A stretch of 64,000 nucleotides of DNA from a virus (Duplodnaviria; Heunggongvirae; Uroviricota; Caudoviricetes). The position numbers were made by a program, and so were the translations under genes. The first letter of the stretch is position 1; each line of letters opens with the position of its first letter. Positions 3,001 through 37,046 of the stretch are shown piece after piece. Below the pieces are notes generated by a model. The model had not been told where the DNA came from, ran no database searches, and worked only from the letters and a program-made list of their open reading frames with translations. Location of the stretch: positions 64,001 to 128,000 of IMG/VR virus record IMGVR_UViG_3300028832_000003; one strand, 5' to 3'.

Positions 3001-6000
3001 ATGTCATCAATTTTACTTAAACCATCAGCATATGTTTTTAATGTATTGACATCTGCTTTCTCAAAAAGTTTTCCAATACCATTTGTGAATCCATTATTAA
3101 ATATTCCAACATTCTTAAATCCAAGAAAAGCTCCTATGCCAGCACTTAAAGTGCCACCAAGCCCTCCAAGTTTTGTTATGTTGTTTACAAAATTTATAAC
3201 CGCATTACCAGCTTCTACAAAGAATTTAATTAAATCAGAACTAACAAGAGTCTGAGATAGTTCTTCTATACTTGCTTTTGTCTTGTCAATTGAATATTGA
3301 ATTGACTGTTGATATCTTTCTTGCTCTCGCATAGCAGACCCTTCAGCATCTTCTGCGGTTTGATATGCTTTTTCAAGAGTATCGATGTTATTAAGAACGG
3401 CATATAAACCATTCGCCATTCTCTTTCCAGCCAAAGCTTCTCCTAAAGAAGCCCTTTCAATATCTGTTAAGTTTTGCCATTCTTTTCCAATTCCAACCAT
3501 AATCTCATATAAATCTTTATATGTATTATTGTCTTTCATAATGTCAAAACCAGTTAAACTCTTAACAAGACCACGAAGTTTTGATGTAGACTCAGTATAC
3601 TCGTCTTGCTCCTCATTAAGTTCTTCTAATTCTGTTTTCGAACCACGAATTCTTGCAGACATTGTTTTCCAAAGGTTACCAACAACCTGCGGATCTTGTA
3701 ATACTGTATTTGTCGTCGTTACAAGTGCAACAGATTTTTGAAGGTCTGTATTCGCAGCATTAAATGATGCAGCACTCCTCTTAAGGGCCTCACCAATTCC
3801 ACCAGAACTAATTGCAAAATTGTTTGATACCTCATTAAATACATCAATAATGTGTATTGCATCTTTGGCTTCCATTTGAAAACCTTGAAGCGTAGAAATA
3901 AGAGACTCGTTTGCCGTACTTATGTCAATTCCGTCACCAACATTCTTATAAATAAGGGCAACTCTTGCAAGTTCTTTGCTGTCCGGTAAATTATAACCCA
4001 TCCTTGCCCAGTCAGCAGTTGCGGCAATTGTATCTGTAATTGTTCCACCAACTTCTTTTGCGGTATCAGCATAAGACTTAAAATCTTTCTCAAGTTCTTT
4101 AATGGAATGATCTGATACTTTCGCCAACTCTGTAAATTGTGTATTAAGTTGAATTACATTCTGTCCAATCATTTTTGCATATCGCATTATATCTCTAAAA
4201 CTGAAATAAGATGCAATCTGTTGGGCAAATGTGTAAAAGACTTTATTTTTAAGTGTTCTTATAAAACCGGATCCAGCTTTGTTTGCACGATCTATTTCTG
4301 TTTGAATGTTGAAAAATGCCTTTTGAATTTCTTGTAATTTGATATCACTTATTTCTGGATTTTGTGCTTCAGTCATTAAAGCAATAATCTCATTTCTTTT
4401 GCCTTTTCCAATCCTTGTGTTATAATTAACATATTCTTGCATCTGCTGGATAATGCTCGCTGCACGAACAGAGTTTGCACGCTTTGGTATCTCAGATAAT
4501 TTACCAAATAAATCCGTTATTTCATTTTCTAATGCAGTTACTTCTTGAACTTGATTCTCGTTTGTAATATCAAGTTTATAATCTTGTAATAAAACAAGTT
4601 TATTCTGTATATCATTTAATACATCATTATATTCATTCAAATATTTTAAGGAATTCTTACTCTTACTTACCCTATCAAAATCCCTTTGAAATTTATCTAA
4701 TGGTCTTGTGTATATTTCTCTATAGTTTTCTTCATTTTTCTTTTTATCAAACAAATAATTTTCTAAGTCTGCATCTTTATACATCTTTTCCCAATTATAT
4801 TTTTGTTCATTATTTGTTTCTTCTTTTTTTGTTTCTTTTCTTGTTCCTAAAACATTACTATTGCTAGGATTTTTAATTGCATTGGATTCTTTTTTGAATT
4901 CATCTGTTTTTTCTCTTACTGCGCTAGTAACATTTTCAACCGATTCTTTTAACTCTGTTAACTTATCTTTTTCAGATGCTACAACTCTATTTACTATTTT
5001 TTCTTCATTTGTAAAGGCAGTATTTTTCTTTCCTATTCTCTTAGATGTTTCTTTGAGGGCATCATTAAGTTCATTAACTTTTGATATTTCGCCATCTATT
5101 CTATCTTGATTGTTTATATTAAAATCAGTATCTATTTTTACTGTTTCTCCAATAAGTCTATTTGTAACTTTCTGAGAGAACCCCTCCGAATCAAATTCTC
5201 CTTCAGAAAGTGGCTCAACTGGGATCTGAGCGGGAGAGAACTGAATTTGCTCAGAAACTGATTCTGCAAATTTTGATGGTTCATTTATTTCTGGTTGTAC
5301 AGAAATGGTGGCGTTCCATCCGTTGAGAAATTGTGTTGTTTCTGTAACGAATAAATTTGGATCATCAACATTTGGTTTAACATTAACTTTTGCAAATTCA
5401 TCCTTAATATTATCAGTAATTTCATCTACAAATTCATTTGGATTTAAAATTGGCTTTACTTTAATAAGAGTAGGAGATAATCTATCCGGAAGTTGTTCTT
5501 GAAATTCTTCTGTTCCCAACCCATTCTGCGTATTTGATTGTTTATTTATTCTATCAAAATCATATCCCAACTCTTCTAAATACACATGTGCTTTTGGAAG
5601 TGTTGCGAGAAAATCATTCCATTCGTCTGACTTAACAAAATCTTTTGCTGCACCATATGACATGAATTTATCTTTAAATTTTTCAAGTTCTGGATACTTT
5701 TCTAGTATATGATCAATCCACTTTGTTTGATCATCTATATCTCTTTGTTCTGTTAAAGTCTTTAGTTCAATTGTGGAATCAACCAAATCTAATAACTTAG
5801 CAGATAAATTTTTAACATAATCTCTACTGTCAGACAATGCCTCATTTAATGAATGTCTAAGTGATTCACTTTGGGATTCAATGTTTTTAATTTCTTGTTC
5901 TATACCATAAAACTCAGTAGATACTTTGTCTATGTTCAATCCCAAACGATCTTCTGCAACCTTATCGAAGCGCTTTATGTCTTTATAATCATAATGATTT

Positions 6001-29320: not shown

Positions 29321-32300
29321 TTATCCAAACATAGAAAATCGCTTGCACTGTTTAATTGGCAAGCGATTAATTAAATCATTTTTCTCCGTATATTTCCTTT
29401 TTTTGCTAATCCTAATCTGATCAACAACATAAAGATTATATTCCAAGCTACTGTATCTATCCTTCCTCATACCAGACTTTTCTTTAACCTTAATTAATCC
29501 ATTGGAAATTTCGTGGTCAAGGTTTATAAGTTCATCAATTAAGAACGTAGTCTGATAATGTGGTAACGACAACATAGCCTTTTGTCTGTCCGTTAATTTA
29601 TTATAATTCTTAATCTTCGTAGACCATTTGTCTTCCATGTCCGTTTCTGATGCAAGAAGATTGATATATCCATTCTGAAATGCTGCTCTAAGAGATAAAC
29701 ACATGTCATTATTTTGTTTACCATTTGGTTTTATAATATAAAGACATTTAGTTGTATCTTTAGATTTACAACGTTCGTTCATTTCAGGATTATTAATTGA
29801 ACTCATTGCTTTATACATTTGACCATATACTGGATCAAATCTGTCTTGAACCATAATGAAATCGGCAACTCCCTGACCTATCATCGTTGTTATCTTACAA
29901 GCTTTTTATCTTGTAATTCTAATAGTTTATTATTCCTATTAGTTCAGCATATTTTTTTATCTTTATTAAAACACTTAATAAACCAAAACAGTTGTATATT
30001 TGTATTGTTGCGTTTTCCATACCTTTGATGAAATTTTATATGACAATTTTGACACAAAGTTATACCATTGTGAACATCATACCTTAGTGCTAGATTATCT
30101 TTCCAATTAAACATATGATGTGCTTCTAATCTAACAAACTTACCATTTCCGTTTCTTGCACCGCAACATTTACAGGTATATCTATCTTTTAAAAACACAG
30201 CTTTTCTCCAGTCTCGATATTCTGGCAATTCTCTGCCGTCACGAATTGTTGTGGCAAAATCACCCTTCCATTTTGGATTATTTTTACCGCGCATTGACTC
30301 TCTAAACATTTTTGTTTGAGAATAATTTTCGCAACCATATTTTTCTATACATGTATTTTTATATTTATCTCTGCATTCTTTTATTTGTGAATTTGAAGTT
30401 ACTCCAAAATTATCAATATAATATTGCTTAATTTTATTTTGTATTTCTTTATTTCCAAATGGATTTTCACAACCATATTTTTCAATATTTGTTTGTTTTA
30501 TTTTTTCATCTACGCCTGGTATCCTTCTTGTAAAATCAACACCATATAGCATTTTAACAGATTCTTGTGCCTTAATAGTTGTACATTCTTTTTTGCCACA
30601 ACAGTCTTTATTATTTGTCTTCTTTTTTAATTTTAAGTATGAACGCCAAATAATATCAAAATCATTACCACAATATTCACATTTACACACGACTTTGGCT
30701 GTACTTCCGTTTGTTAAATCCTCGACTTTAACTTCAAATTCATCTCCAATATGAGTATATTGATATCCAAGATTAATATAATGTTTACATACTTTTGAAT
30801 TCCACTTTAATATAACTGTTTTTGTTAATAACATATTTGTTCTCCTTTCTCACAAAAATAGTGCTAGGGGAAATATACATACCCCTAGCACAAGAATAGG
30901 AAAACTTTTATCCTTTAGCAGTTAACACAATTTGTTAACCGGTGTTTTAATACAGATAGTGCGACCTCTTGGAAAGATTATATTCTACATATAATATATT
31001 CTCTATTTTATGTAGTTTCACTTTCTATGCGTTGCCCCTGACTAGTCTTTTAAAAATAGCCTTCGGTTCGAATTCGCATCTCAGCGTCTTCGCTTTATTT
31101 CGCACAGTTTCAATTGCTATTTCTAGCAAAAGCGGCATAAGTCTACCGTTACAATCAATTGCAAAATAATCACAATCATATTGATAAAAATATCTCATTG
31201 CAAGAAGTCCTAATTCCTCTGTTACCATACCTTCAGCGGTTTCGACATATGATATATTACTTAAATAGTTTTCCTCATTTGTTTTAATACACTGGTTGAT
31301 AACAAAACAACTCGCATCGTTCTTGTTTTTTTTAGATGCCATAAGTGCAACATCCAACGAAAGTATTCTTATCTCATTTACTTGTTTCTTTGGAATTTGA
31401 GTTCCGGTTTCCCTATAATAATCAAGCGGTCGCAACCCATCTTGCAAAGTTCTGCGATCACTCAGAATATTATAATTAAACAATGCATCTTCATTTGAAC
31501 CATAAAAAATTCCTTCACGTTCCATCATAAACGTAATGTCAGAAAATGTTTCCTCTGACATTTCGTTCTCTATCTGTTCACGCATAAGAAGTCCTTCTGC
31601 TATTGATAATTCATATGGTAAATCACAAATGAAATATTTCTTCGTGTCATCAAGTGAATTTGCAACATAAGCCTTAACTTTGTCATACATTTCGCTTGCT
31701 TTATACCATGCGGAAGACATAAACATTTCTTTATTCATTTCCTGAAGATGTTTATATTCAGGTTTTCTTAAATATCCGGGTTGCCTAGGTGAAGCATTCA
31801 TTGGTCTAATAACTCTTTCAAAAAGTTTCTGAGGAATTAATCGGCATTCATCAACAATAACAATATTACTTCTACCACCCAAGCTTGTTTCTCCAGCAAC
31901 TCTTACTTGTATAAAAGAACCGTTTTTAAACCACACTCCACAGTCATTAAGACCAGTACTAGCCTTTTTGATTTCATTACATAAAATAGGAGAGTGTTGC
32001 ATAAAATCATCAGTTATTTTTAATACAACTTCCTTTCCTTGCTTAAATGTATAACTAAATGCCAATATTTTTGTCCCAGGATACAAAATACATCTGACTA
32101 CCGCGTACAAGGCCACTAAATAAGTTTTGCCAAGCGATTGTTATTATCTGTGAATTTTTTATTTCACACTCTGGAGATTCATTTATCTCATTTTCATCGA
32201 TCAGTTAATTCTGATCCAGTCTAGCATATATTTTCATCTTTTATAATAATTATATGAAGATGGAGTGGACTCTTGGAGATATTATATTTATTCAATCTCT

Positions 32301-33813
32301 ATGCGTTACGGTGAGCAACAGCCTTTCGCAATCTGTTCTTTACCTCGGTGTTGGCATCTCAGCGTCCACCGATTTTCCACTCTTATTGCCTGCATATTTC
32401 TATGCAGCGGAGCCATCTAAATAGGATTTTACTAATTCATATTTTCTATATAAAAAAAGAGCATTTTGATCATGATATAAATGATTGACAAGTTTTTTCA
32501 TACTATCAATATTAGTACATATTAATCTATGTTTTTTGTCATGCTCTTTGTAAATTGATGTTTTAATATCAAATGTCTGTAAAACATTTTGAATATATAA
32601 TAAAACTTTATCTGTAGCACAAGTTATGTGCATATAACAATGATTTTTTATTTTCCAAAAACATCCGTCGCCATCTATATAACCACGAAGAAAATCAAAA
32701 AAGTATTCCTCATTCACAATAGGGAATACTTCTTTTAATGTTTTATTTGTTTCTATTCCATTCTTCATTAATCCACGAACAATTCTACTAGAATATACTC
32801 TTAAACATGCCGATTTCCCAGAATGACAAAGATTTCCACAAATTACAATTTCTTCTGGTTCTTTATAAGATATAACATTTAAACCACCAAGTTCTTCGTT
32901 TAGTCTTTCCAAAATATATTTATCTCTATATTGTAGTTCCATTCCAAATTCATGTCCTCTATTATCAGATCTGATATGAATCCATCCGTCTGCAAAAATA
33001 TAACCAAGAAAATAAGCTTTTAATGGAGTATCTATAGCGTCAAAATATGTATCATTTATTTGACGCAGTTTTGTTAACCCCATGTTATTTATTCTACCGC
33101 GTATTTGTCTTTCGGTATAACCAAGTTTATTTGCTATTTCTTTATATGTCATATCTTTGTAATGATCCTTCATAAATTGATTTTCTTCTTTTGAAAATCT
33201 AAATGCATGGAACAAATCATTTTTCTTAATATAATATCTTACTGTTGGTATGGTTATATTTAAATATTTTGCAATTTCCATTGCAGACATTTGTGGGAAG
33301 TTTTCTAAAACAAATAATTCATTTTTTGTTTTGTTTCTCATAATATTAATCCTCCTTTTTATTTTTTTGACAAAATAAAAAAGAGGTGGCGGGTAATTAT
33401 CCCGCAAATCCTCTTTAAATAAGTAATCCTATATAGTTTTATTAACCCCTCGCGGCAACAAAAAAGAAGTAGTCATACAGCATCATTGCAAATATCAATA
33501 TCTTCTGAAACAACTTCAAATGAATTCCAAGAAACTCTTCAACAAACCTATGAGGATTAGCCCTATAATAAGAAGCCCTTTCAGCAATTGTATTCATAAG
33601 CCTTTCGGTTTTGTCTTGTTGAATCTCCTTATCGGTTTTCTTTTTACTAGAAGCCCGACTTTGTCTAATTTTGGCAACCCTTTCGTTATGTCTCTTTTCT
33701 TTTTCTCCAATTTCCTCTTCAATTACTTTCGGTTCTTCAACCACTTCAATCTTTGGTTTAATCGGAGTTTGTTTCTTTTGAACATCTGGCTTATCAATTC
33801 TTTTGAAAGCCAT
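29321..33813 (-). CDS. terL: Terminase large subunit, 639 aa after splicing; exons 33813-33445, 32134-31145, 29881-29321
   Basis: Splicing restores Walker A AARG|LGKT and nuclease motif IDCNG|IGQGVAD; Walker B IVIVDE; C-terminal RKDRYSS. Confidence 0.9.
29882..31144 (-). ncRNA. Group I intron 2 of terminase (1263 nt) carrying an HNH ORF
   Basis: Exon ends ACGGU, pairing with intron GCCG; intron ACUUAU can pair with 3' exon AUAGGU (P10); terminal G at 29882; conserved core GGCAACGCAUAG...AUAUGCUGAACU. Confidence 0.85.
29944..30834 (-). CDS. Intron-encoded HNH homing endonuclease
   Basis: [17 protein letters not shown]...LEAHH...[23 protein letters not shown] repeats. Confidence 0.85.
   Translation of the reverse strand: MLLTKTVILKWNSKVCKHYINLGYQYTHIGDEFEVKVEDLTNGSTAKVVCKCEYCGNDFDIIWRSYLKLKKKTNNKDCCGKKECTTIKAQESVKMLYGVDFTRRIPGVDEKIKQTNIEKYGCENPFGNKEIQNKIKQYYIDNFGVTSNSQIKECRDKYKNTCIEKYGCENYSQTKMFRESMRGKNNPKWKGDFATTIRDGRELPEYRDWRKAVFLKDRYTCKCCGARNGNGKFVRLEAHHMFNWKDNLALRYDVHNGITLCQNCHIKFHQRYGKRNNTNIQLFWFIKCFNKDKKIC
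32135..33444 (-). ncRNA. Group I intron 1 of terminase (1310 nt) carrying a LAGLIDADG ORF
   Basis: Exon ends GGGGU, pairing with GCUCC at the end of the ORF; core CGUAACGCAUAG...AUAUAAUAUC...AUAUGCUAGACU; ends ...ACAAUCG. Confidence 0.85.
32400..33341 (-). CDS. Intron-encoded double-motif LAGLIDADG homing endonuclease with N-terminal HTH repeats
   Basis: [12 protein letters not shown] and [12 protein letters not shown] motifs; GGAGG RBS. Confidence 0.85.
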   Translation of the reverse strand: MRNKTKNELFVLENFPQMSAMEIAKYLNITIPTVRYYIKKNDLFHAFRFSKEENQFMKDHYKDMTYKEIANKLGYTERQIRGRINNMGLTKLRQINDTYFDAIDTPLKAYFLGYIFADGWIHIRSDNRGHEFGMELQYRDKYILERLNEELGGLNVISYKEPEEIVICGNLCHSGKSACLRVYSSRIVRGLMKNGIETNKTLKEVFPIVNEEYFFDFLRGYIDGDGCFWKIKNHCYMHITCATDKVLLYIQNVLQTFDIKTSIYKEHDKKHRLICTNIDSMKKLVNHLYHDQNALFLYRKYELVKSYLDGSAA

Positions 33814-35145: not shown

Positions 35146-35216
35146 CTGGGATAATAAGAATCGGACTTATATATGTCGGTTAACAGCCGACTGTTCTGCC
35201 ATTGAACTATATCCCA
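35146..35216 (-). tRNA. tRNA-Asn(GTT)
   Basis: TGGGATA/TATCCCA acceptor; anticodon arm GTCGG-CT GTT AA-CCGAC. Confidence 0.8.
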
Positions 35217-35292
35217 ATGTGGTGGAGCAAAACCGCCCCACCGTTATTAATTCCCTTCTCATCCCGAAAAGAGTTTTTGTCTTCAAAAGAAG

Positions 35293-35318
35293 AGGAGAGG
35301 GAAGCACTCCCTCCCCCC
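35293..35318 (-). terminator. Terminator after the displaced gene remnant
   Basis: GGGGGAGGGA...TCCCTCTCC hairpin followed by TCTTCTTTT on the minus strand. Confidence 0.55.
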
Positions 35319-35332
35319 TTAAAAGATAGTTA

Positions 35333-35420
35333 CTATTTCATTCTCTTGATAAACTCATCAAACTCACGTCTCATGGATTCACTTGAAGCCTTATCCTTTA
35401 AGTCTTCAAGCATTTCGATC
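35333..35420 (-). pseudogene. Orphaned 3' end of the 36672-37046 gene; its first ~20 nt are the TnpB guide
   Basis: Translates IEMLEDLKDKASSESMRREFDEFIKRMK*, 19/28 identical to the C-terminus of the upstream gene. Confidence 0.85.
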
Positions 35421-35525
35421 TTGAACATAATGCATATTTGCATTATTCCTAGTCAATATTCCTAACGGAACAAGTTTACCTAGGCTATCCCCGCAGTTCC
35501 TGCGGTTCTTATATATCACTTAACA
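35401..35525 (-). ncRNA. TnpB omegaRNA (reRNA) scaffold plus guide
   Basis: AACCGCAGGAACTGCGGGGATAGCCT...; subterminal hairpin ATAATGCA-AATA-TGCATTAT; right end TTCAA at 35421; the 5' boundary is approximate. Confidence 0.8.
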
Positions 35526-36762
35526 ATTATTTAGTCCTTCATTTAGAATGTTAATTGCGGCATTTATATCTCTATCTAATTCATTACCGCAAATTGGACA
35601 CACCCATTTCCTTATTGCTTCATCCTTTTTACAATCTCTATGCCCGCAGATGTGACATATTTGTGATGATGGATAGTATCTGTCAATAACTTTTAGCTCT
35701 TTACCATACCACTGACATTTGTATTGTAATTGTCTTCTAAATTCATATAAAGAAACATCAGAAATCCTTTTGTTTCTTATAGTAGAGTCGGTTTCTCTTA
35801 ACGATGAAACATCTAAATCCTCAATACAAATTGTGTCATATTCACGAACGAGATTAGTTGTAAGCTTTTGTAAAAAATCCATCCTTTGGTTTGCAATATG
35901 TTTATACAGTTTTGCAAGTTTGATTCTCACTTTATTACGATTAGAACTACCAATTGTTTTTCTTGATAATTCTTTACATAATTTAGCAAGTTTCTTTTCC
36001 GATTTTTCAAAAAATTTAGGATTATCTATTTTGATACCATCGGAGTATGTCGCAAAATTTACAATTCCCAAATCTATTCCAATATTATTACCAGTTTTTG
36101 GAAATTGATTGTTTTCTATGTTTGTGCAACATAAAGAAACATAATAATGACCTATAGCATTTTGGGATACTGTAGCATGTAATATACGACCAGATGGTAC
36201 TAATTTTCCTCTAATTTTTATATTACCAAGCTTTGGTAATTGAATATGATTTTTAAGGAATTTAATATTGTTATTATTAAATTGTGTCCTATATGATTGT
36301 TTTTTGTTTTTCTTTGATTTATACTTTGGAAAACTTTGATGATTATTAAAAAATAATTCAAAGGCACGATCCAAATGTTTTAATGAATTTTGTAATGCCC
36401 ATTTATCAGGTTCTTGTAACCATATGTAATTATTTTTTAATACAGTTAATTCTCTGCTAAAATCGCAATATCTAATATTTTTATTATTTTCATTATGTTC
36501 ATTAATTTTTCTGTCAAGAAAATAATTATATACAAATCTGCAACATCCAAATGTTTTTTGAATTAATTCCTTTTGTTTTTTATTTGGATATATCCTATAT
36601 TTATAATACTTTTCCATATGCTCTCCTTTACAAAAATAGGAGAGGGCAATAAATACCCTCTCCATGAAAAATTACTTCTTCATTCTTTTTATAAATTCGT
36701 CAAATTCACGTCTCATATTTTCGTTAGTAGACCTGTCACGCAGTTCTTCTAACATACTTAAC
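35421..36762 (-). mobile_element. IS200/IS605-derived tnpB-only element carrying a recoded host-gene 3' end
   Basis: tnpB + right end TTCAA; left junction inferred after TGGAT (36767-36763); no tnpA in window. Confidence 0.7.
35520..36617 (-). CDS. tnpB: RNA-guided endonuclease TnpB
   Basis: YKYRIYPNKKQ...FGCCRFVYN (HTH); RuvC residues in GIDLG, IEDL, DRDINAAINI all intact; CHIC..CPIC Zn finger. Confidence 0.95.
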   Translation of the reverse strand: MEKYYKYRIYPNKKQKELIQKTFGCCRFVYNYFLDRKINEHNENNKNIRYCDFSRELTVLKNNYIWLQEPDKWALQNSLKHLDRAFELFFNNHQSFPKYKSKKNKKQSYRTQFNNNNIKFLKNHIQLPKLGNIKIRGKLVPSGRILHATVSQNAIGHYYVSLCCTNIENNQFPKTGNNIGIDLGIVNFATYSDGIKIDNPKFFEKSEKKLAKLCKELSRKTIGSSNRNKVRIKLAKLYKHIANQRMDFLQKLTTNLVREYDTICIEDLDVSSLRETDSTIRNKRISDVSLYEFRRQLQYKCQWYGKELKVIDRYYPSSQICHICGHRDCKKDEAIRKWVCPICGNELDRDINAAINILNEGLNNC

Positions 36763-37046
36763 ATCCAATCTGATTCACCCGAGTAACCGCCGTCGTCATA
36801 ACGACTATAGCGACCACCGTTTCTGAACGAACGACCGTCATCATATCTGGACATGCGACCGTAATAGCGGTCACCGTAACTATATCCAGACTCATTTTCA
36901 CACATCTCAATCAACTTGCAGAGGTTCTTAGCAGTATGAGCCAACATGTCAATAGTAGGAAGTTCAGAGGATTTAACCTCATTTCTCATTCCATACTCTT
37001 CAAGTTCTTCGATGATTTTCTTTTTAAGTTCATAAACACCGTGCAT
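36672..37046 (-). CDS. Hypothetical protein (RYSRYDD repeats), last gene of the Q/N/G-rich cassette
   Basis: 124 aa with GGAGG RBS; its C-terminus is duplicated beyond tnpB. Confidence 0.75.
   Translation of the reverse strand: MHGVYELKKKIIEELEEYGMRNEVKSSELPTIDMLAHTAKNLCKLIEMCENESGYSYGDRYYGRMSRYDDGRSFRNGGRYSRYDDGGYSGESDWMLSMLEELRDRSTNENMRREFDEFIKRMKK

Follow-up and report, generated by a model that had tools for sequence, protein, structure and literature searches.

Why does a tnpB gene in a phage genome lie between two versions of the same gene end, one in use ahead of it and the other displaced behind it, at the position from which its guide would be read? The question is raised by a 64,000-nucleotide stretch of viral DNA, referred to below as the window, which is part of a complete virus record of 152,015 bp with direct terminal repeats. 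The whole window was recovered in two bovine gut metagenome runs, both of one sample, which is possibly the source. The answer that we consider probable is that a transposase-less TnpB cassette of the IS605 family, set in a phage gene, is an RNA-guided homing endonuclease that operates between related phages during co-infection.

Layout of the Locus

All features of the cassette are found on the minus strand, in the order 124-aa host gene, terminator-like hairpin, ribosome-binding site, tnpB, omegaRNA-like stretch and second host-gene tail. The host gene (36672..37046, − strand) codes for a phage hypothetical protein that gave no Pfam and no PHROG match, for which 34 homologues were found and whose Atlas neighbours are viral hypotheticals. 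It is intact and chimeric, a native 5' part being continued by a foreign tail that keeps the gene open. This replacement tail (36672..36776, −), delimited by the empty-site joint at 36777, by translation and by trees, comprises 34 codons and a stop, and begins with ESDW. A terminator-like hairpin follows (36639..36663, −), of the type that ends this gene in element-free relatives, and then the ribosome-binding site of tnpB, recognised in the sequence (36621..36628, −). The host stop and the tnpB start lie only 54 nt apart, and this interval holds no transposon left end. Downstream of tnpB (35520..36617, −), the predicted 3' core of the omegaRNA (35421..35508, −) consists of three stems and ends in GTTCAA. 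Next come the displaced native tail (35333..35420, −), which occupies the guide position, has 28 codons and a stop and lacks a start codon of its own, and the original terminator-like hairpin of the host gene (35295..35319, −).

An earlier note on this DNA had placed a terminator hairpin behind each copy of the tail, and hairpins are indeed located after both; such hairpins were observed at four sites, with 0.8 expected. The same note had seen no tnpA, left-end hairpin or intron. In agreement, the complete 152-kb phage genome holds no match to a Y1 tnpA, the left-end motif of the family is not found at up to 6 substitutions, and Rfam gave no intron family at E <= 1. Both the transposase gene and the left end have thus been lost.

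With regard to the surroundings, a terminase-like gene that forms one 657-aa ORF in L001 (6150-8123) is present in the window as three pieces (29321-33813, −), split by endonuclease ORFs at 32400-33407 (phrog_4645) and 29944-30834 (HNH/homing endonuclease). These two ORFs are probably intron-borne homing endonucleases, and their presence indicates that homing-type elements colonise this phage. A tRNA-Asn stretch (35146-35283) is absent from the contigs of X3 and X4, where 12 nt stand in place of 138, and represents a second indel polymorphism adjoining the cassette; a tRNA-Asn-like sequence occurs in L001. The latter also carries an additional ORF (4409-4792) between the host-gene terminator and the tRNA, so that this spot receives other insertions as well.

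Two Versions of the Gene End

The 88 nt beyond the right end encode a second C-terminus of the host gene, identical to the one in use at 19 of 28 residues (tblastn on the genome, E 1.6e-8). The BLOSUM score of the two tails is 108, against a maximum of 53 among 564 mismatched pairs of guide sides and upstream genes, which bears out the claim of a second version beyond tnpB. The two copies have in common a distal stretch of 45 nt that is 84% identical. Codon by codon, 10 of the 28 aligned positions are unchanged, 9 differ synonymously and 9 non-synonymously.

The tail in use had been described as recoded, with AT-rich codons set against a remnant resembling the rest of the gene. The codon argument falls, since GC3 amounts to 9/28 for the tail in use, against 12/28 for the remnant and 38/90 for the 5' part of the gene (Fisher p 0.38-1.0), and codon bias was rejected as evidence for the origin of the tail. 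The copy would be a protected one, as had been proposed, but "recoded" overstates the case: 9 of 28 codons are non-synonymous, and in a tree built on a short alignment the replacement tail groups (85/90) with P0016/18/19, a lineage that is distant in the N-terminal tree. It is therefore better called the tail of a foreign orthologue.

Element-Free Alleles in Related Phages

Contigs of 7 of 24 listed metagenome runs were compared with the window. In three of four runs (X3, X4 and X6), from two studies, contigs join 36777 to 35420, skipping 1356 nt and carrying 14 other letters in between, which on the coding strand end in TGGAT and encode Ser-Gly-Glu-Trp-Met. The shorter matched side of this empty junction measures 138 letters in X3, and only 34 in X4 and X6. 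Since the joint falls at 35420, the junction coincides with the right end of the family, and the element-free gene reads TGGAT directly into the guide-side tail, as the earlier note had anticipated for relatives; in X3 the match also holds at the sequence level. This contig shows 13 differences over 35284-35420, of which the 10 listed ones all lie at least 31 nt from the junction and 3 are unlisted, so that the guide matches the X3 empty allele with 0-3 differences. The source run (X1) contains only the element allele, with 0 differences and at a depth of 19.

The proposal that joining the two sides rebuilds a seamless allele stands for TGGAT and the tail, and fails for the residues before the junction, which are Ser-Gly-Glu-Trp and not Glu-Ser-Asp-Trp. 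At the empty site, the right junction is exact, but the motif there is TGGAT, and the 9 nt upstream of it have also been replaced, the replaced tract starting at 36776. A tail that begins 9 nt upstream of TGGAT was not excised at the TAM, which would make recombination its simpler source; capture purely by TnpA is disfavoured for the same reason.

Relatives that carry the replacement tail, named beforehand as evidence against the homing reading, do exist (P0002, P0004 and X8), but the majority is native: among the tails of 39 homologues, 31 resemble the remnant more than the copy in use, 6 show the opposite preference, and 2 are tied. Further, P0156 corresponds to the N-terminal 90 aa of the window's protein joined to the native tail. 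The element-free junctions, the 31 homologues and P0156 together identify the remnant as the original gene end. Ten host-gene loci were found in JGI metagenomes, and the 8 readable ones all have native-type ends. More distant element-free loci with readable ends differ from the guide at 5 or more of 20 positions, and the reach predicted for the guide among element-free loci is narrow.

The remnant itself is not uniform. At 35375-35390, nine differences from the X3 empty allele are gathered within 16 nt and give S-S-E-S, which is nearer to P0158/P0159 (P-S-E-S) than to the P-N-D-S of its own lineage. This stretch is likely a recombination patch.

The Predicted OmegaRNA and Its Guide

The omegaRNA-like stretch folds with a z of -3.2, and its stems are kept, 15 of 24 family base pairs showing covariation. 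The right end GTTCAA stops at 35421, where the earlier note had ended the omegaRNA, and can be aligned with those of 30 related elements. A structured right-end RNA reaching the boundary of the element is thereby predicted. The last hairpin of the right end (35446-35427) has been re-sequenced and is 4 nt shorter, yet still forms a perfect 8-bp stem; the TTTAG-type loop of the family, present in 51 of 67 members, has been lost from it. Such a change would fit selection on the RNA fold after transposase binding was lost.

The predicted guide consists of the first 16-20 nt of the native tail (35401..35420, −). Its start is placed by the right end of the family and the empty-site joint, a start elsewhere having been named as fatal to the reading; its length is set by analogy to ISDra2 (PMC8612924). 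The corresponding self-site in the copy in use (36743..36762, −) mismatches the guide at 9 of 20 positions, the same number as first counted, namely 2, 4, 5, 6, 7, 11, 13, 19 and 20. Double mismatches in positions 1-12 are described as abolishing ISDra2 cleavage (PMC13639567), and by analogy the copy in use, with 6 mismatches within these seed positions, would be protected from cutting. The phage's own genome contains no TGGAT site with fewer than 4 mismatches in 12. A TTGAT site with 2 mismatches in 12, also in this genome, was set aside as being at chance level (45 of 297 random 12-mers).

A Candidate TAM Changed at One Base

In the copy in use, the TAM-equivalent position is occupied by TGGAT (36763..36767, −), within Trp-Met codons, and TGGAT also precedes the junction in the empty alleles. 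A left end could be recognised in 32 distinct related loci. The pentamer at this end is TTGAT in 28 of them, ATGAT in two and TCGAT in one, with one locus unassigned, and TGGAT was not encountered. It is at position -4 that the empty site departs from the TTGAT of the family. F77 and T123 are the residues that touch this -4 T in the structure of ISDra2, where the remaining TAM positions are read by Y52, S56, K76, Q80 and N124 (PMC10097598). The TnpB of the window keeps these five residues (Y50, S54, K72, Q76 and N115), in an alignment that is gapless at these positions, and changes exactly the two readers of the -4 base, F77 to W73 and T123 to N114. Residue changes that match the altered TAM base are suggestive, and we predict that the TAM preference, formerly for TTGAT, has shifted or loosened to TGGAT or TNGAT. 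The placing of TGGAT as the TAM in the earlier note is therefore in line with both the empty alleles and a shift at precisely the changed base.

Asn at the T123 position was encountered in 2 of 113 parsed homologues, namely this protein and one of doubtful register, the position varying among T, V, S, M and I in homologues. Trp at the F77 position coexists with TTGAT in L087. As the T123A substitution abolishes cleavage by ISDra2 (PMC10097598), T123N could also be a loss of function. On the side of the target, W-M or W-I is found in 31 of 40 host proteins; Trp and Met being single-codon residues, targets could not evade the TAM by silent change. Altered TAM-pocket residues, together with an atypical AT-rich right-end hairpin, were also observed in L172-L177, a divergent TnpB group from MAGs of Bacilli and Tenericutes.

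The TnpB Protein

The ISDra2-like TnpB (365 aa) harbours three Pfam TnpB domains (HTH, OrfB and zinc-ribbon), two CxxC pairs, and the RuvC residues D182, E266 and D350, all intact as had been noticed from the sequence. Among natural proteins of solved structure, the closest to it is ISDra2 TnpB (E 1.6e-88; PDB 8bf8, 8h1j and 8ex9), on which the N-terminal lobe of an AlphaFold model superposes with an rmsd of 1.6 A over 166 aa; this model (pLDDT 79, pTM 0.52) supports the lobes only. The domains and the D-E-D triad make it an IS605-family TnpB. Mobile IS200/IS605 elements are recognised by tnpA and a left-end hairpin, which this element lacks, and TldRs by an inactivated RuvC, whereas here the three catalytic residues are present.

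The nearest full-length homologue is 69% identical. The protein retains 154 of 164 highly conserved columns and 21 of 71 variable ones, a pattern expected under purifying selection, which suggests a long divergence under constraint. Its retention of conserved columns (0.94, versus a median of 0.99) is among the lowest 3-4 of 120 sequences.

Distribution of the Cassette and of the Replacement Tail

The cassette was seen in the source sample only. The 90% cluster of its TnpB has two members, both of this sequence, and the best listed short fragments reach at most 75% identity. The replacement tail is identical, and has the same boundary, in P0004 and in P0002, in the latter of which it stops one residue early, as the native tail of this lineage does. 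The N-terminus of P0004 groups with the native-tailed P0158/P0159, so this tract boundary is combined with two different N-terminal backgrounds, whereas TnpB is known from one sample. P0004 is encoded on a 69-kb contig and P0002 on a 5.5-kb contig; matches to TnpB elsewhere being at most 69% identical over the full length and at most 75% among the listed fragments, both contigs are probably devoid of this tnpB. In addition, a 151-nt contig of run X8 spans the replacement tail, from which it departs at 5 of 130 nt, and its 21 letters past the stop do not fit the window; at a depth of about 3, missing tnpB cover in X8 is not counted as absence. From these three contigs, it seems that the replacement tail occurs apart from the nuclease, and it may be a circulating allele unrelated to homing. 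A pre-existing donor allele, a conversion of the tail only, and a deletion between the 84%-identical 45-nt ends would account for it equally well.

The earlier note had proposed a search across tnpB loci for similarity between the guide side and the upstream gene end. From 164 related loci, 121 passed the filters, 95 of them with distinct guides, and the one clear case is the window itself, which points to a layout that is not a property of this TnpB clade. L066 was rejected as a second case, its element being an ordinary insertion into a tandem paralogue that retains a left end of its own, as was L100, whose match is found 2 kb upstream and whose element carries TTGAT at its left end; in L058, L062 and L092, the right end had been called too early. 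The layout is absent from 5 TnpB loci in two related phages. A second cassette was found neither in IMG/VR, by omegaRNA pattern (0 matches) or by protein, nor in JGI metagenomes (8 readable host-gene loci) or GenBank phages.

Other arrangements were met in the course of this survey. Outside the window, another solo tnpB (L002, G000:C1:55706-56827; 53% identical) is flanked by two tail genes; to its left, the sequence after TTTAT duplicates the first 8 nt of its own guide side and spans the stop codon of the upstream gene. In L019, L032, L043 and other IMG/VR loci, the guide sides of several related gut-phage IS605 elements begin with an ATG or show an open coding frame.

A Probable Homing Endonuclease and Its Alternatives

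The earlier note had put forward RNA-guided homing with a rescue tail. The native nature of the guide-side tail and the start of the guide survive from this proposal, while the codon argument and the recoding do not. In the version that we favour, an IS605 element would have inserted at a near-cognate site, TGGAT|, and recombination with a distant orthologue would then have supplied the tail and terminator, removing the left end. The TnpB ribonucleoprotein would cut native alleles at TGGAT plus guide in co-infecting relatives, and spare its own seed-mismatched copy, and repair templated by the donor would transfer the entire cassette or the resistant tail alone. A fuller form of this reading, which we regard as possible and hold tentatively, is a natural RNA-guided "home-and-rescue" drive, with a TnpB that has abandoned its transposon, a TAM pocket retuned to TGGAT (T123N, F77W), a motif fixed by the non-degenerate codons for Trp and Met, the displaced tail as guide, a foreign tail that is cut-proof, and TnpB-free tails that represent footprints of conversion.

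A more ordinary history is that an IS605 element broke the gene and that recombination with a pre-existing tail allele restored it, leaving a stranded TnpB without a working target, because it needs TTGAT or is crippled by T123N. The cassette comes from one sample only, the replacement tail occurs without this TnpB, TTGAT is the family TAM in 28 of 32 loci, a flank-derived guide is automatic in any IS605 insertion (PMC8612924), and the retention of conserved columns is near the bottom (0.94 against 0.99), all of which such a repaired insertion would explain. We nevertheless judge it unlikely, since a protein at least 31% divergent from all homologues has kept 94% of its conserved columns, the RuvC triad and the zinc finger, the terminal hairpin is re-sequenced but fully paired, and the residues that have changed are those that contact the one TAM base that differs. 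Cutting of co-infecting native alleles might also benefit mainly the carrier, by marker exclusion, with repair mostly converting the tail alone through the near-identical distal 45 nt and leaving resistant alleles free of TnpB. The early end of the P0002 tail would be expected from a short tract of conversion or from a deletion between repeats, and the two copies sharing 45 nt at 84% and the tract boundary common to two N-terminal backgrounds agree with it; ordinary double crossovers yield the same products, however, and the 5 differences in 130 nt show that the X8 tail is not a fresh copy. This form of interference is, in our estimation, improbable.

Two further readings carry far less weight. 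TnpB could be a non-cutting, TldR-like RNA-guided repressor of the native gene or of another target, as solo TnpB is found here in a phage and TldRs are phage-borne (PMC10705468); the intact RuvC triad, a guide matching the 3' end of the gene and not its promoter, and the lack of any TGGAT site with fewer than 4 mismatches in 12 in its own genome make this very improbable. As for an assembly chimera of two phage strains, for which the single sample of origin would speak, an independent Logan contig of the same sample spans 35270-36900 with 0 differences at a depth of 19, and both junctions fall on biologically exact boundaries; it can be practically dismissed.

Relation to Known Systems

With ISDra2-type IS200/IS605 elements, the cassette shares the TnpB family, a right end in TTCAA, a guide from the right flank and an intact RuvC (PMC8612924, PMC10097598). 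It differs by the absence of tnpA and left end, the altered right-end hairpin, TGGAT instead of TTGAT, F77W and T123N, and the tail of the target gene that it carries. The closest parallel in architecture is offered by the mORFs of fungal mitochondria, described in atp6 of Allomyces macrogynus and in atp6, atp9, cox2 and nad3 of Glomus (PMC3630166). In these gene hybrids, the same order is observed, with a gene core, a foreign C-terminus, an endonuclease and the displaced native C-terminus, and the native piece likewise groups with relatives whereas the inserted one does not (PMC3630166). mORFs encode protein-guided LAGLIDADG or GIY-YIG enzymes of mitochondria, whereas guidance here would be by RNA, with the displaced tail itself as guide. 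By analogy, the cassette would work like an mORF gene hybrid, of which it has the architecture, without being a member of that mitochondrial LAGLIDADG/GIY-YIG class.

TnpA-independent drive by TnpB has been demonstrated in plasmids (bioRxiv 2025.02.20.638934; PMC13565253). This gene drive, or non-restorative homing, resembles the present proposal in the TnpB-dependent displacement of element-free copies without TnpA; it involves complete IS elements in plasmids, the available text of these sources mentions no rescue tail, and the word "phage" occurs 0 times in the main text of the preprint. IStrons also place a TnpB element inside a gene at lowered cost to the host gene, but by group I splicing (PMC10690162), whereas rescue here takes place at the DNA level and no Rfam intron family was detected. 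Intronless homing of the T4 SegF type similarly separates self from non-self at co-infection by sequence differences in a neighbouring conserved gene; it is protein-guided and has no duplicated gene end (PMC13565253). In a literature search conducted mostly outside subscription journals, no TnpB with a carried gene tail was found, and no paper combining "TnpB" and "TGGAT", though TAM tables in supplements could affect the latter point; the accessible parts of PMC10448857 and PMC11043419 contain nothing on this layout or on TGGAT.

The locus lends itself unusually well to testing, since the empty allele is defined at single-base resolution and a single predicted change of TAM is linked to two residues; it could also yield a compact nuclease with a TGGAT or TNGAT TAM. 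If the homing reading is true, the cassette would represent a third way for TnpB elements to persist in genes, beside IStron splicing and intergenic insertion, and an RNA-guided counterpart of the mitochondrial mORFs. It bears on the independence of TnpB from the transposase, which is the first step toward fixed-guide systems.
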